A stretch of DNA of 64,000 nt, taken from NCBI GenBank assembly GCA_046562895.1, contig CM102164.1:32715842-32779841 (forward strand), in the 5' to 3' direction. Made by a program: the position numbers and the translations under genes. This document shows positions 14,030 to 54,250 of the stretch, piece by piece. Position 1 is the stretch's first letter. The number at the start of each line of letters is the position of its first letter. This DNA is from Trichechus inunguis. Taxonomy: Eukaryota. Below the pieces are notes generated by a model. That model was not told where the DNA came from and made no database searches. It saw only the letters and a list, made by a program, of their open reading frames with translations.

Positions 14030-16631
14030 TTTTTTATTATTGTGCTTTAAGTGAAAGTTTACAGTTAAAGTTAGTCTCTCATACAAAAATTTACACATAC
14101 ATTGTTATGTGACCCTAATTGCTCTCCCTGTACTGTGACAGCACACTCCTCCATTCCACCCTGGATTTCCCATGTCCGTTCAACCAGCTCCTGACCCTCT
14201 CTGCCTTCTCATCTCGCTTCTGGACAGGAGCTGCCTATGTAGTCTCATATATCTACTTGAGCTAAGAAGCACATTCTTCACAAGTATCATTTTATGTCCC
14301 ATAGTCCAGTCTAATCTTTGTCTGAAGGGTTGGCCTCGGAAATGGTTTTAGTTTGGGGTTAACAGAGAGTCCGGGGGCCGTGTCTTCTGGGGTCCCTCCA
14401 GTTTCAATCAAACCATTAAGTCTAGTCTTTTTACTAGGATTTGAGTTCTGCACCCCACTTTTCTCCTGCTCCATCAGGGACCGTCTGTTGTGTTCCCTGT
14501 CAGGATGGTCATTAGTGGTAGCCAGGCACCATTTAGTTCTTCTGCTCTCAGGCTGATGAAGTCTCTGGTTATGTGGCCCATTTTGTCTATTAGGCTAATA
14601 CTTTCCTTGTGTCTTTGGTGTTCTTCATTCTCCTTTGTTCCAGGCAGGTTGGCACCAATGGATGCATCTTAAATGGCCGCTTGCTAACTTTTAAGACCCC
14701 AGACACCACTCACCAATGTGGGATGCAGAACATTTAAAAAAGTTTGTTATGCCAGTTGACCTAGATGTCTCCTGAAACCATGGTCCCCAGACCCCTGCCC
14801 CTGCTACTCTGTCCCTCGAAGTGTTTGGTTGTATTCAGGAAACTTCTTAGCTTTGGATTAGTCCAATTGTAGCTGACTTCCCCTGTAGTGTGTGCTGTTC
14901 TTCCCTTCACCTAAGATAATTCTTGTCTACTATCTAGCTAGTGAATACCCCTCTCCCTCCCTCCCCACCCTCGTAACCATCAAAGAATGTTTACTTCTGT
15001 GTTTAAACCTTTTCTTGAGTTCTTATAATAGTGGTCTTATACAATATTTGTCCTTTTGCGACTGACTAAATTCACTCAGCATAATGCCTTCCAGATTCCT
15101 CCATGTTATGTTTCACAGATTCATCGTTTTTCTTTATCGTTGCATAGTATTCCATTGTATGAATATACCATAATTTGTTTATCCATTCGTATGTTGATGG
15201 GCACCTATATTGTTTCCATATTTTTGCTACTGTGAACAGTGCTGCAGTGAACATGGGTGTGTGTATATCTATCCATGCGATGGCTCTTATTTCTCTAGGA
15301 TATATTCCAAGGAGTAGGATTGCTGGATCATATGGTACTTCTATTTCTAGCTTTTTGAGGAAGCGCCAAATTGATTTTCAAAGTGGTTGTACCATTTTAC
15401 ATTCCCACCAACAGTGTATAATTGTTCCAGTCTCTCCACAGCCTCTCCAACATTTATTATTTCATGTTGTTTGGATTAGTGCTAGCCTTGTTGGGGTAAG
15501 ATGGTATCTCACTGTAGTTTTGATTTGCATTTTTTAATGGCTACTGATAGTGAGCATTTCCTCATGTGTCTGATACCTGCCTGAATATCTTCTTTGGCAA
15601 AGTGCCTGTTCATATCCTTTGTCCATTTTTTAATTGGGTTGTTTATCTTTTTGTTGTTGAGGTTTTGCAGTATCTTGTAGATTTCAGAGATTAGATGCTG
15701 ATCAGATTTGTCCTAGCCAAAACTTTTTCCCAGTCTGTAGGTTGTCTTTTTACTTTTTTGCTGAAGTCTTTTGATGAGCATAAGTGTTTGATTTTTAGGA
15801 GCTCCCAGTTATCTAGTTTCTCTTCTGGTGTTTGTGCATTGTTACTTATGGTTTGTATTGTGTTTATGCCATGTATTAGGGCTCCTAGAGTTGTCCCTAT
15901 TTTTTCTTCCATGAACTTTATCGTTTTAGATTTTATATATAGGTCTTTGATCCATTTTGAGTTAGTTTTTGTGCATGGTGTGAGGTATGGGCCTTGTTTA
16001 ATTTTTTTCAGATGGATATCCAGTTATGCCAGCACCATTTGTTAAAGAGACTGTCGTTTCCCCAATTAACGGACTTTGGGCCTTTGTCAAATATCAGCTG
16101 CTCATAGGTGGATGAATTTACATCTGGATTCTGAATTGTGTTCCACTGGTCTATGTATTTATTGTTGTACCAGTACCAGATTGTTTTGACTACCATAGCA
16201 GTATAATAGGTTCTAAAATCAAGTAGTGTGAGGCCTCTCACTTTGTTCTTCTTCTTGAGTAATGCTTTACTTATCCGGGGCCTCTTCCCTTTCCATATAA
16301 AGTTGCTGAGTTTTTTCTCCATCGCATTAAAAAATGCCGTTGGAATTTGGATCGGGATTACATTGTAGCTGTAGATCGCTTTGGGTAGAATTGACATTTT
16401 CACAATGTTGAGTGTTCCTATCCATGAGCAAGGTATGTTTTTCCATTTATGAAGGTCTCTTTTGGTTTCTTGCAGTAGTGTCTTGTAGTTTTCATTGTAT
16501 AAGTCTTTTACGTCTCTGGTTAGATTTATTCCTAAGTATGTTATTTTCGTGGAGGCTATTGTAAATGGTATTCATTTGGTGATTTCCTCTTCGAAGTTCT
16601 CTTTGTTGGTGTAGAAGAGTCCAACTGTTTT
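14030..16631 (-). mobile_element. L1 copy A. It is 5'-truncated and consists of the 3' UTR plus the C-terminal half of ORF2. It belongs to the subfamily whose 3' UTR lacks the internal duplication.
   Basis: A poly-T tract at its low-coordinate end is the poly-A tail in reverse. The 3' UTR is homologous to the other copies, and reverse-strand ORF fragments carry L1 ORF2 C-terminal motifs (for example ORF 16008-16403). Confidence 0.8.
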
Positions 16632-19600
16632 TTTTTTTTTTTTAATTGTACTTCAGGTGAAGGCTTACAGAACAAATAGTTTCTCATGAAACAGTAGTAC
16701 ACATATTGTTTTATGACATTGCTTAACAACCCCACAACACGTCAACCCTCTCCCTTCTCGAGCCTTTTTTTTTTGGTGAAAATATACATAGCCAAAGATA
16801 CACCATTTCAAAAATTTCTACATGCACAGTTCAGTGACATCGACTGCGCTCTTCCAGTTGTGCTGCTATTCTCACTTGAGATGAAGGCTTACAGAACAAA
16901 ATAGTTTCTCATTAAACAGCTAGTATACATGTTGTCCTATGACAATGGTTAACAACCTCACAACACATCAACACTATCCTTACTCAACCTTGGGTTCCCT
17001 ATCACCAGCTTTCCTGTCCCCTTCTGCCTTCTGGCCCTTGTCCCTGGACTGCTGTGCCTCATTACTCCCATTTGGTTTTATGGGTCTGTCCACTCCCCGA
17101 CTGAATGGTGAACCTCGGAAATGACTTCACGACTGAGCTAAAAGGGTTTCTGGGGGCCATACTCTCGGGGTTTCTCCAGTCTCCTTTAGGCCAGTAAATC
17201 TGGTCTTTTTTTTTTGTGAGTTAGAATTTTGTTCTACATCCTTCTCCGGCGCTGTCCAGAACCCTCTGTTGTGATCCTGGTCAGAGCAGTCCGTGGTGGT
17301 AGCCGGGTACCATCTAGCTGTACTGGACTCAGTCTGGTGGAGGCCTTGGTAGCTGTGGTCCATTAGTCCTTCGGACTAATCTTTTCCTTGTATCCTGTTC
17401 TCTTCATTCCCCCTTGCTCCGGAAGGGGTGAGACCAGTGGAGTATTTTAGATGGCTGCTCACAGGCTTTTAAGACCCCAGACTCTACTCACCAGGGTAGA
17501 ATGTAGAACATTGTCTTTATAAACTGTGTTATGCCAGTTGAGCTAGATATTCCCCGAGACAATGGTCCCCAGAGCCCTCCGCCCAGCAATTCAGTCCCTC
17601 AGGGTGTTTGGATGTGTCTATGGAGCTTCCATGACCTTTACTTGTACAAGTTGTGCCCGCTTCCCCAGTATTGTGTACTGTCTCACCCTTCACCAAAGAT
17701 ACCACTTATCTATTGCCTATTTAGTATTTCCCCCCACCCCTCCCATGCCTCGTAACCAACAAAGGTTGTTACTTTTTGTGTGTAAACTTTTTCATGGGTT
17801 TTTGCAATGGAGGTCTCATACAATAGTTGTCCTTTTGTGATTGACTTATTTCACTCAGCATAATATCCTCCAGTTTCATCCATGTTAGCAGATGCTTCAC
17901 AGATTCATCATTGTTCTTTATCATTGTGTAGTACTCCATTGTGTGTATGTACCATAGTTTGTTTATCCATTCATCTGTTGATGGGCATCTAGGTTGTTTT
18001 CATCTTTTTGCTATTGTGAACAATGCTGCCATGAACATAGGCGTGCATATGTCTATTTGAGTGACGACTCTTATTTCTCTAGGATATATTCCTAGGAGTG
18101 GAGTTGCTGGATGGAATGGTATGTCTATTTCTAGCTTTCTAAGGAGGCGCCATATCCTTTTCCGAAATGGTTGTATCATTTTGCATTCCCACCAGCAGTG
18201 CATAAGAGTTCCGATCTCCCCACAGCCTCTCCAACATTTTTTATTTCCAGTGTTTTTGATTCGTGCCAGTAATGCCGGGGTGAGATGGTATCTCATTGTG
18301 ATTTTATTTTGCACTTCTCTAATGGCTAGTGAATGCGAGTATTTCCTCATGTGTCTGTTGGCCATTTGAATGTCTTCTTTGGTGAAGTGTCTGTTCATTT
18401 CCTTTGCCCATTTTTTAATAGGATTATTTGTCTTTTTGTTGTAGAGGTATTGGATTTTTTGTAGATTATGGAGATTAGACCTTTGTCTGACTTGGACTGT
18501 CCAGAAATTTTTTTCCCAGTCTGTAGGTTCTCTTTTTACTCTTTTGGTGAAGTCTTTTGAAGAGCATAGGTGTTTGATTTTTAGAAGATCTCAGTTATCT
18601 AGCTTATCTTCTGGGGTTTGTGTGTTGATGGTTTGTATCCTGTTAATGCTGTGTGTTAGGGCCTGTAGTGTTGGTCCTATTTTTTCATCTATGAACCTTA
18701 TAGTTTTTGGCTTTATATTTAGGTCTTTGATACATTTTGAATTAGTTTTTGTATATGGCATGGGGTATGGGTCCTGTTTCATTTTTTTGCAGATGGATAT
18801 CCAGTTTTGCCAGCACAATTTGTTAAAAAGACTGTCTTTTCCCCATTTGATGGACTTTGGGCCCTTGTCGAAGATCAGGTGACCATAGGTAGATGGATTT
18901 ACATCTGGTTTCTCAATTCCATTCCATTGGTGGATGTATCTGTCATTGTACCAGTACCAGGCTGTTTTGACTACCGTAGTTGTATAGTAGGTGCTGAGGT
19001 CAGGTAGTGTGAGTCCTCCTACATTATTTTTCTTCTTCAACAGTGCTTTACTTATTCAGGGCTTCTTCCCTTTCCATATAAAGTTAATGATTAGTTTTTC
19101 CATCTTTTTAAAGAATGTTGTTTGTATTTGAATCGGGTTTGCATTATATTTGTAAATTGCCTTGGTGGAATTGTCATTTTCACAATGTTGAGTCTACCTA
19201 CCCATGAACATGGTATGTTTTTCCATTTATTTAGATCCCTTTGGGTTTCTTGCAGTAGTGTTTTGTAGTTTTCTTTGTATAGGTTGTTTATATCCCTGAT
19301 TAGATTTTTTCTTAACTATTTTATTTTTTTAGGGGCTTTTATAAATGGTATTGTTTTCCTGATTTCCTTTTCATCGTTCTCTTTATCGGTGTATAGGAAT
19401 CCAACTGATTTTTGTATGTTTATCTAGCATCCTGCTACTCTGCTGAATTTTTCTACTAGTTTCAGTAGATTTCTCACGGTGTCTTTAGGGTTTTCTATGT
19501 ATAGTGTTACATCATCCGCAAACAGGGACGGTTTAACTTCTTCTTTACCAATTTGGATGCCCTTTATGTCTTTTTTTGCCTTATTGCTCTAGCTAGAACT

Positions 19601-54100: not shown

Positions 54101-54250
54101 TCTGGTTACCAGTTGTTCTGTCTGCTGCTGGGAGTCCCGTGAAGCTGCTTTTCTGTACTCCCTGTTCGCCGATCTCCGACAGGAGTCCAAGATGGTGAAT
54201 CAGCTGCTTTAGCTGATAGGAGACCTCTGCATGTATCTCTCCTCGCTGTC
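48125..54250 (-). mobile_element. L1 copy J, about 6 kb. It is 3'-truncated within ORF2 but retains the ORF2 RT and endonuclease domains, the ORF1/ORF2 junction, ORF1 and a 5' UTR with tandem monomer-like units. The exact 5' boundary is uncertain by about 300 bp either way.
   Basis: Reverse ORFs: 48548-48889, 49113-49542 (RT), 49901-50404, 50529-51132 (endonuclease) and 51213-51395 (contains the ORF2 start MTAINSHLSIITL). ORFs 51926-52129 and 52392-52607 are L1 ORF1-like (..PRHIIITLAKIKVKERILRAAPEK..). The 5' UTR region (52700-54250) carries repeated GC-rich plus A-rich units. Confidence 0.85.

Follow-up and report, generated by a model that had tools for sequence, protein, structure and literature searches.

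Why should every recognizable LINE insertion across some 40 kb of one gene lie antisense to that gene? The question is raised by a stretch of Trichechus inunguis DNA (64,000 nucleotides, positions 32,715,842 to 32,779,841 of the forward strand of contig CM102164.1, assembly GCA_046562895.1; hereafter the window), in which ten L1 copies, designated A to J, and an RTE-like fragment occupy introns of PARP4. A sequence-only reading had taken the 10-to-0 split as a possible sign of selection at this locus, or of one complex antisense insertion or rearrangement. The pattern is already known, and there is good reason to think that its uniformity here reflects ordinary LINE build-up in three large PARP4 introns under known biases.

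PARP4 and its intronic LINE copies

The + strand of the window carries 17 colinear exon matches to PARP4 (tblastn, aa 483-1181), and the joined exon translation matches PARP4-named proteins in NCBI/UniRef with 80-87% identity, bearing out the strand originally proposed for the gene. No Afrotherian PARP4 ortholog was among the protein-search matches to the exon translation, every one of which is of at most 1215 aa. Three introns hold all of the L1 copies and the RTE-like fragment, each flanked by + strand exon matches; the LINE copies between these exons are themselves on the minus strand, hence their antisense placement. The exons concerned are:

8411..8500, + strand, PARP4 exon, about aa 682-711 (tblastn, approximate); 5' boundary of the 18.4 kb intron with L1 copies A-F
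26860..27020, + strand, PARP4 exon, about aa 712-764 (tblastn match, approximate)
28251..28331, + strand, PARP4 exon, about aa 782-808 (tblastn); precedes the 10 kb intron with copy G and the RTE-like fragment
38408..38550, + strand, PARP4 exon, about aa 810-856 (tblastn); precedes the 16 kb intron with copies H, J and I
54621..54815, + strand, PARP4 exon, about aa 855-919 (tblastn); polypyrimidine tract and AG before the exon

The L1 copies total 27.3 kb and the RTE-like fragment adds 1.6 kb; the initial estimate was about 27 kb of intronic L1 and RTE sequence. Each L1 copy has its own poly-T at its low-coordinate end:

14010..16627, minus strand, L1 copy A: 3'UTR and ORF2 aa 740-1241, 5'-truncated; divergent lineage common to A and D
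16628..20949, minus strand, L1 copy B: T16 tail abutting the 5' end of A, followed by 3'UTR and ORF2 aa 249-1263
20950..22180, minus strand, L1 5'UTR with genuine 5' terminus; reverse complement begins GGGGAGGCAAGGCCAAGATGGCAG
22232..23056, minus strand, L1 copy C: 825 bp, 3'UTR only, one of the young group; insertion site at the D tail
23057..24328, minus strand, L1 copy D: 3'UTR and ORF2 aa 1191-1232; lineage as in A
24329..24612, minus strand, L1 copy E: degenerate poly-T tail and 249 bp of 3'UTR; oldest of the stack
24720..25343, minus strand, L1 copy F: T15 tail and about 610 bp of 3'UTR; tail begins 107 bp past the 5' end of E
29333..30890, minus strand, L1 copy G: 3'UTR and ORF2 aa 1148-1272; exact 12-nt target-site duplication AGCCCCAGTTTT at 29321 / 30891
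about 31733-33310, minus strand, RTE-like LINE fragment, 1.6 kb: reverse-transcriptase domain to 3' end
38679..40442, minus strand, L1 copy H: 3'UTR and ORF2 aa 1001-1266; 10-nt target-site duplication AGGATTTTTA at 38669 / 40443
41102..42700, minus strand, L1 copy J, 3' part: tail, 3'UTR, ORF2 from aa 1071
42742..47655, minus strand, L1 copy I: 4.9 kb, ORF2 aa 26-1272; exact 14-nt target-site duplication AGACAGGAGTTTTT at 42728 / 47656
48114..54420, minus strand, L1 copy J, 5' part, reaching the genuine 5' terminus: about 1.7 kb of 5'UTR, ORF1, ORF2 aa 1-1067

Minus-strand ORFs carry the Pfam domains RVT_1 and Exo_endo_phos (L1 ORF2 reverse transcriptase and endonuclease), and human ORF2p, a probe checked against PDB 8uw3, matches A, B, D, G, H, I and J with 38-75% identity (tblastn). 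Copies C, E and F, which consist of 3'UTR only, were assigned to L1 by DNA homology; of the earlier description of every copy as having poly-T and a reverse-strand ORF2, the poly-T therefore stands for all ten, the ORF2 not for these three. ORF1 was found in J only (tblastn, 51754-52549, minus strand, 33-39% identity, E = 7e-26, with a human ORF1p probe). Within its ORF2, copy I retains an open stretch of 420 aa, for which an exact-protein lookup gave no match. The L1 5'UTR at 20950-22180, whose likeness to the 5' terminus of J was assessed by eye, is probably the 5' part of copy B after an internal deletion. Full-length J lies between the two copies of a 13-nt target-site duplication (GTCACCAGTTTTT at 41089, GTCACCAATTTTT at 54421) and runs to 54420, past the end at 54250 initially given for it. 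An array of ~237-bp units in the 5'UTR of J has a 75%-identity self-match as its sole support, and was not recovered there by Tandem Repeats Finder.

The RTE-like fragment, whose minus-strand placement is confirmed, gives a Pfam RVT_1 hit of E = 2.4e-24 on a frameshift-stitched translation, and 50-52% identity to BovB (tblastn, E = 2.7e-76) with a BovB probe that is not a curated reference. Only a T6 run follows its 3' end at about 31733. Some 190 bp of this 3' end recurs at 60644-60850 and 27277-27407, both on the minus strand.

Orientation and independence of the insertions

Could sense-oriented L1 segments have been overlooked, as the sequence-only reading allowed? With human L1 ORF2p and ORF1p as tblastn probes, all matches (28/28) fall on the minus strand, as does every blastn match to a composite L1 reference. 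Self-matches of the window longer than 200 bp are all direct, the 10 inverted pairs being of 159 bp or less, and no inverted match between any two L1 copies appeared in the copy-versus-copy comparison. An L1 ORF2 profile HMM run on six-frame fragments gave 52 minus-strand hits vs 2 on the plus strand, both of the latter with E > 3; relaxed tblastn on the + strand gave no match better than E = 0.3, and word-size-7 blastn of the L1-masked window returned T/A runs alone and no further L1. Across DNA, protein and profile searches no sense L1 was found in the window, although short non-coding pieces of ancient L1 families could escape such searches. The tblastn, blastn, self-match and profile HMM results all place L1 on the minus strand, and the ten L1 copies are antisense to PARP4, as was originally observed.

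Candidates for sense elements were considered and rejected. The + strand CCAAGATGG at 54187 might mark a sense L1 5' start; as a 9-mer it is expected ~0.5 times per window by chance, and its surroundings are the antisense 5'UTR of J, whose true terminus and target-site duplication lie at 54420. A-rich + strand patches at 2801-3500, 4201-4600 and 55201-55600 are without L1 match at the DNA or protein level; 2780-2850 presumably represents a MIR, and the remainder of the patches other old repeats. SINE-like motifs, unlike the LINE pieces, are present in both orientations.

Private target-site duplications of 10-14 nt flank G, H, I and J, all four ending in TTTT with A or C as the next base; the ten copies each combine their own poly-T tail with a different 5' truncation point; no two of them are more than 92.1% identical, a value that the young group's own spread includes; and copy-versus-copy alignments stop at the element ends, with no common flank. 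Because of these private duplications, separate tails and truncation points, and identities of 92.1% or less, a single duplication or complex insertion as the source of all copies is excluded. The suggestion that several copies are one duplicated segment is contradicted by flanks, truncation points and identities alike; that of one complex insertion or rearrangement fails as worded, for the same tails, truncations and duplications, and survives in spirit, in that orientations are coupled via the target site.

This coupling is clearest in the first large intron, where copies A-E are packed head to tail into a single T-rich site no longer than ~100 nt, and F follows ~107 bp beyond (the intervening 24613-24718, considered as a continuation of E, has no L1 match). 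The A/B gap is 0 bp, B beginning exactly at the end of A, and the C/D gap is ~2 bp; four or more of the five gaps measured 51 bp or less in none of 200,000 random placements. The flank left of C (22187-22231) is similar to the tail of E, which flanks D on the right (24329-24363): the C and D pair is bounded by a duplicated copy, ~35-40 nt long, of that tail. D, and later C, thus appear to have inserted into the degenerate poly-T tail of E, and A and then B would have inserted at a possibly reused GTTTT/A site; target-site duplications within the stack are too T-rich, short and ambiguous to prove this order. In the third intron, copy I lies inside full-length J, within a non-L1 insert of ~485 bp; the two parts of J on either side of I break off at adjacent L1 positions. 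Since five copies share one T-rich site, F is close by and I is nested in J, the ten copies are not ten independent draws of orientation.

Expected bias, target asymmetry and competing explanations

How unusual is the outcome once this is taken into account? Depletion of sense L1 in introns, cited as background from the start, is correctly described: among fixed mouse intronic LINEs 35.5% are sense, i.e. ~65% antisense (PMC3446317), and among human full-length L1s less than 2 kb from exons 27.7% are sense (PMC3088655). Of L1s inserted into L1s, 21,559 share the orientation of the host L1 and 9,899 oppose it (68.5% same; PMC2836564). With 65% antisense and 68.5% same-orientation L1-in-L1 insertion, proportions taken from mouse and human rather than T. 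inunguis, the probability that all are antisense is ~0.03-0.11 for five or six independent draws, which is unremarkable for a locus picked after the fact. Adding the two RTE-tail pieces (27277-27407 and 60644-60850, both minus) brings the raw tally to 13/13 antisense; nine independent draws would give P ~0.02, and four coupled events added to these 0.008, which is nominally significant. The claim that 10:0 far exceeds the genome-wide bias counted fragments as independent events; once coupled insertions are merged the excess over ~2:1 vanishes, and the reading of the split as exceptional is not upheld.

The L1 endonuclease nick at 5'-TTTT/A-3' sets the strand that receives a new copy, and hence its orientation. 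Within antisense L1 of the window, TTTTA occurs 127 times on the + strand vs 21 on the minus strand, a six-fold excess, and TTTTAA is found 32 vs 9 times, giving a 3.6- to 6-fold strand asymmetry in target; non-L1 sequence is balanced (TTTTAA, 59 on + vs 54 on minus; TTTTA, 150 vs 144). Three known factors together probably account for the uniform orientation. Genome-wide loss of sense L1 from introns leaves about two-thirds of intronic LINEs antisense, a background that seems to be due to selection rather than insertion bias. As the nick picks the strand, orientation is coupled through the endonuclease target: a minus-strand L1 offers + strand targets in its poly-T tail, in its T-rich antisense body and in the target-site duplication that borders its 5' end, and later L1s in or beside it take the same orientation because the targets there lie on the + strand. 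The stack would have grown in the order E, D, C, with A followed by B. Chance would cover the few independent events that remain.

Could several copies instead have arisen in one event, by segmental duplication or rearrangement of antisense L1, or by chimeric retrotransposition through an RNA template switch? The A/B and C/D gaps of 0-2 bp without recognizable target-site duplications between, the enclosure of C and D in one long duplication, as for a single chimeric insertion, and the similar within-group divergence of the A/D and B/C lineages, which were thus possibly active together, would all fit. Some stack junctions could be template-switch chimeras. Against this are the distinct tails and 5' truncations of all ten copies, the private duplications of G, H, I and J, and the lack of any pair above 92.1% identity or with alignment extending beyond element ends into a common flank; chimeric junctions number at most two or three, and the orientations would then be non-independent and still not remarkable. 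An origin of this kind is unlikely.

Two further possibilities invoke a force acting on this locus. The 13/13 antisense LINE pieces beside SINE-like motifs in both orientations, and the position of several insertions 150-2000 bp from exons, where the published antisense bias peaks (PMC3088655), are what would be expected if unusually strong selection against sense LINEs in PARP4 (e.g., through premature polyadenylation or slowed elongation) had let only antisense copies survive; but independent events are few, with P 0.03-0.11 under the average genome-wide bias, no sequence feature sets the locus apart, it was selected once the pattern was known, and the published bias did not vary between gene classes (PMC3446317), so that this is quite unlikely. 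Highly improbable is a regional insertion bias that acts independently of the gene and favours one L1 orientation across the 40 kb, due, for example, to an endonuclease preference tied to replication-fork direction. Replicative strand asymmetry of L1 is modest in size. A review (PMC10030826) describes strand asymmetry of L1 distribution that is replicative as well as transcriptional, and one orientation is common to three separate introns; inside a single gene, however, such a bias is inseparable from transcription-linked selection. Overall, an extra directional force on this part of PARP4, be it unusually strong selection against sense LINEs or integration biased by replication direction, is very unlikely; if real, the E stack, F, G, H, J, I and the three RTE-type pieces would be antisense for a reason. 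Under ordinary build-up from known biases, the preferred reading, there is little consequence for biology. The practical value is one of caution: counts of repeat fragments overstate independent insertions, and nested and abutting copies should therefore be merged before orientation statistics are calculated.

Comparison with known systems

In mammals, intronic LINEs are mostly antisense, as they are here; long elements and those close to exons show the bias more strongly, and the explanation given is that purifying selection removes sense copies (Smit, 1999; Zhang et al., 2011, PMC3088655; Nellaker et al., 2012, PMC3446317). The PARP4 copies differ from the mammalian ~2:1 in being 10:0 (or 13:0), an excess that is gone after merging of coupled insertions. 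Template-switch L1 chimeras of the U6/L1 type place two segments head to tail in a single target-site duplication, and C and D can be read in this way; in most such chimeras the partner of L1 is a small RNA or an mRNA, and an L1-L1 switch is not demonstrated here.

A further parallel is same-orientation L1/Alu nesting and tandem insertion in A-rich tails and bodies (Levy et al., 2010, PMC2836564), with a 2.18-fold same-orientation excess for L1 into L1 (their Table 3); here, likewise, new L1s lie within older L1s or at their tails in matching orientation, for which the strand asymmetry of the TTTT/A target is the explanation. That study left out insertions of a family into itself in matching orientation as hard to score; at PARP4 they are scorable, since every copy retains a 3' end of its own. 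By comparison the PARP4 locus is an extreme single example, with five elements in one short T-rich site, and a clear worked example of two textbook effects: the antisense bias of intronic L1, and the stacking of copies in one orientation where poly-A tails and target-site duplications lie.

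LINE orientation in the PARP4 introns

The identity and plus-strand orientation of the host gene are confirmed by 17 colinear plus-strand tblastn matches in the window, spanning aa 483 to 1181 of a human PARP4 probe, and by the window's own concatenated exon translation, which matches proteins named PARP4 or poly [ADP-ribose] polymerase 4 (NCBI, UniRef) and is 80-87% identical to mammalian sequences. The window is mammalian DNA. Ten L1 copies, A to J, were delimited in the introns, 27.3 kb in total.

L1 copies and clean target-site duplications
14010-16627, minus strand: A, divergent lineage, common to D
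16628-20949, minus strand: B, with L1 5'UTR next to it (20950-22180)
22232-23056, minus strand: C, 3'UTR only
23057-24328, minus strand: D, lineage of A
24329-24612, minus strand: E, 3'UTR only
24720-25343, minus strand: F, 3'UTR only
29333-30890, minus strand: G; private duplication AGCCCCAGTTTT at 29321 and 30891
38679-40442, minus strand: H; private duplication AGGATTTTTA at 38669 and 40443
42742-47655, minus strand: I, within J; private duplication AGACAGGAGTTTTT at 42728 and 47656
41102-42700 and 48114-54420, minus strand: J, full length, in two parts; duplication GTCACCAGTTTTT at 41089, GTCACCAATTTTT at 54421

All 28 tblastn matches of human ORF2p and ORF1p probes to the window are on the minus strand (the ORF2p probe agrees with PDB 8uw3 across all 1275 residues), as are all matches to a composite full-length L1 reference derived from copy J; among minus-strand ORFs, one of 420 aa contains the Pfam reverse-transcriptase domain and others contain the Pfam endonuclease domain. 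Self-comparison of the window gave 84 direct and 10 inverted repeat pairs, the inverted ones SINE-sized and all those over 200 bp direct, and pairwise comparison of the ten copies gave no inverted matches. With the copies masked, sensitive blastn with five L1 queries returned T/A runs only; relaxed tblastn gave no plus-strand L1 match better than E = 0.3; and a profile HMM from 50 mammalian ORF2 proteins found 52 minus-strand fragments and two plus-strand ones, both with E > 3. A few A-rich plus-strand patches were considered as sense L1 and rejected, being not L1 by blastn, tblastn or profile HMM.

The claim of the sequence-only reading that all ten L1 copies are antisense to PARP4, with none in sense, is thus borne out, except that short non-coding sense remnants of ancient L1 families, beyond the reach of library-free searches, may be present. 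The poly-T it described at the low-coordinate end was found as a separate run in each of the ten copies. Its assignment of a reverse-strand ORF2 to every copy does not apply to C, E and F, which are 3'UTR only (about 1.15 kb long in their L1 family), and otherwise stands.

The RTE-like fragment, a separate LINE piece, was likewise correctly placed on the minus strand: its frameshift-stitched translation matches Pfam RVT_1 (E = 2.4e-24), and it is 50-52% identical to a BovB probe. Its 3' end (~190 bp), similar to the AfroSINE 3' motif, recurs at 60644-60850 and 27277-27407, both minus strand; these two pieces, unlisted in the earlier reading, each lie no more than a few hundred bp from PARP4 exons and may represent either RTE copies truncated at the 5' end or SINEs with an RTE tail. 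Two poly-T runs (T16 at 31341, T18 at 31615) lie a little below the 3' end of the RTE fragment, with a weak minus-strand L1 ORF1 match between them (31485-31562, E about 0.03-0.06); the 31341-31733 region may hold the remains of an old L1 with ORF1 only, likewise antisense. Two AfroSINE-like motifs have four occurrences in the window, and an AfroSINE-like motif is also placed, approximately, beside copy A. These lie in both orientations; the one-sidedness is therefore LINE-specific and no strand artefact of the window.

RTE-like and AfroSINE-like features
~31733-33310, minus strand: RTE-like fragment (Pfam RVT_1, BovB probe)
1953-1978, plus strand: AfroSINE-like motif
35548-35573, minus strand: AfroSINE-like motif
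57029-57054, minus strand: AfroSINE-like motif
55004-55026, plus strand: AfroSINE-like motif
about 13950-14009, plus strand: AfroSINE-like motif

Separate insertions, nested and packed

The earlier suggestion that several copies might stem from one insertion or rearrangement can be set aside: four copies (G, H, I, J) have clean private target-site duplications, ending in TTTT followed by A or C; truncation points differ in all ten; pairwise identity is at most 92.1%, with alignments ending at element ends; and the ten form three groups, {B, C, G, I, F}, {J, H, E} and divergent {A, D}. A single duplication or insertion is therefore excluded. Against the other eight copies A and D reach only 68-79% identity, against each other 88%, a divergence close to that within the young group (88-92%); the host species may have had two well-separated L1 lineages active over roughly the same period. 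Among named eukaryotic matches to the L1 ORF2, the best belongs to Elephas; this match, the RTE-type LINE and the four AfroSINE-like motif occurrences support an Afrotherian origin of the window only indirectly. The closest database proteins (89% and 86% identity) bear the names Pseudomonas sp. MOB-449 and Bacillus subtilis, almost certainly through contamination of bacterial assemblies by mammalian host DNA.

The insertions are nevertheless not independent in orientation, as shown by the nesting of I in J and the packing of A to E, head to tail, in one T-rich site of the 18.4 kb PARP4 intron, with F 107 bp beyond E. The A/B gap is 0 and the C/D gap 2 bp, D ends where the tail of E starts, and the stretch between the 5' terminus at 22180 and the tail of C is just 51 T-rich bases long; packing this tight (at least four of five gaps no larger than 51 bp) was absent from all 200,000 random placements. 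The sequence to the left of C (22187-22231) matches, with divergence, the flank right of D (24329-24363), which is E's degenerate tail; from these sequences, E's tail would therefore have been the target first of D and then of C, and a long duplication was produced. The 7-mer GTTTTAT is present both in A's tail region and directly after 22180, which would fit A and then B having used the same GTTTT/A site, but sharing a 7-mer is weak evidence in sequence so rich in T.

The 5'UTR piece (20950-22180) has a genuine L1 5' terminus at its end and probably represents the 5' part of B, left by an internal deletion. At 20949/20950, 5'UTR sequence is joined directly to ORF2 aa 249; if the two are one element, this implies loss of ~2 kb comprising the ORF2 start, ORF1 and part of the 5'UTR. 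In J, the 3' part stops at ORF2 aa 1071 and the 5' part restarts at aa 1067, with a non-L1 insert of ~485 bp (42701-42741 and 47670-48113) between them; copy I lies inside this insert and entered it after its arrival in J. On its minus strand the insert has AATAAA-like signals, and it may derive from the 3' end of an mRNA by retrocopying; it is flanked by ~41-47 bp of duplicated L1 sequence (42654-42700 and 48114-48160), much more than is usual in a target-site duplication. The J 5'UTR contains, at ~53150-53950, a purine-rich array of about three diverged units of ~237 bp, supported only by one 75% self-match and missed by Tandem Repeats Finder. It is A-rich on the plus strand, where AT skew reaches +0.64, the reverse of the composition of the remaining antisense L1.

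Chance, known bias and target-site coupling

In published counts, 64.5% of fixed intronic LINEs in mouse are antisense (PMC3446317), as are about two thirds of L1 (PMC3192792) and 72.3% of human full-length L1 <2 kb from exons (PMC3088655). From these, the probability that all copies are antisense was computed for varying numbers of independent events, coupled events being those whose orientation depends on the target sites of an earlier adjoining L1.

Probability of an all-antisense outcome
Ten independent events: 0.013 to 0.039
Five or six independent events: 0.07 to 0.20
Six independent and four coupled events (p = 0.80): 0.029
Three RTE-type pieces added as independent: 0.008 to 0.02

Among the thousands of intronic stretches of this kind in a mammalian genome, and for a locus chosen by its pattern, these values are unremarkable. 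The all-antisense LINE pattern at PARP4 is confirmed as a real observation, of a phenomenon already known; an excess over known orientation biases, as proposed for the 10-to-0 split, is not supported, given the coupled events. The suspicion that the copies are not independent was right in spirit, the cause being target-site coupling of successive insertions.

The L1 endonuclease nicks 5'-TTTT/A-3', and target-primed reverse transcription places an antisense copy on the nicked strand. All four clean duplications have the plus-strand TTTT/A-type nicking pattern. At the 5' junction each insertion restores a TTTT/A site, and its tail contributes a poly-T/AATTG site as well.

Target-site motifs, plus to minus strand
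Antisense L1 sequence: TTTTAA 32 to 9; TTTTA 127 to 21
Non-L1 sequence: TTTTAA 59 to 54; TTTTA 150 to 144

From this strand asymmetry, a later L1 in or beside an earlier one would be expected to share its orientation in about 80% of cases. For L1-into-L1 nesting in intergenic DNA, a 2.18-fold same-orientation excess has been reported and credited by its authors to intrinsic sequence features (PMC2836564), in agreement with the ~80% expected from the window counts.
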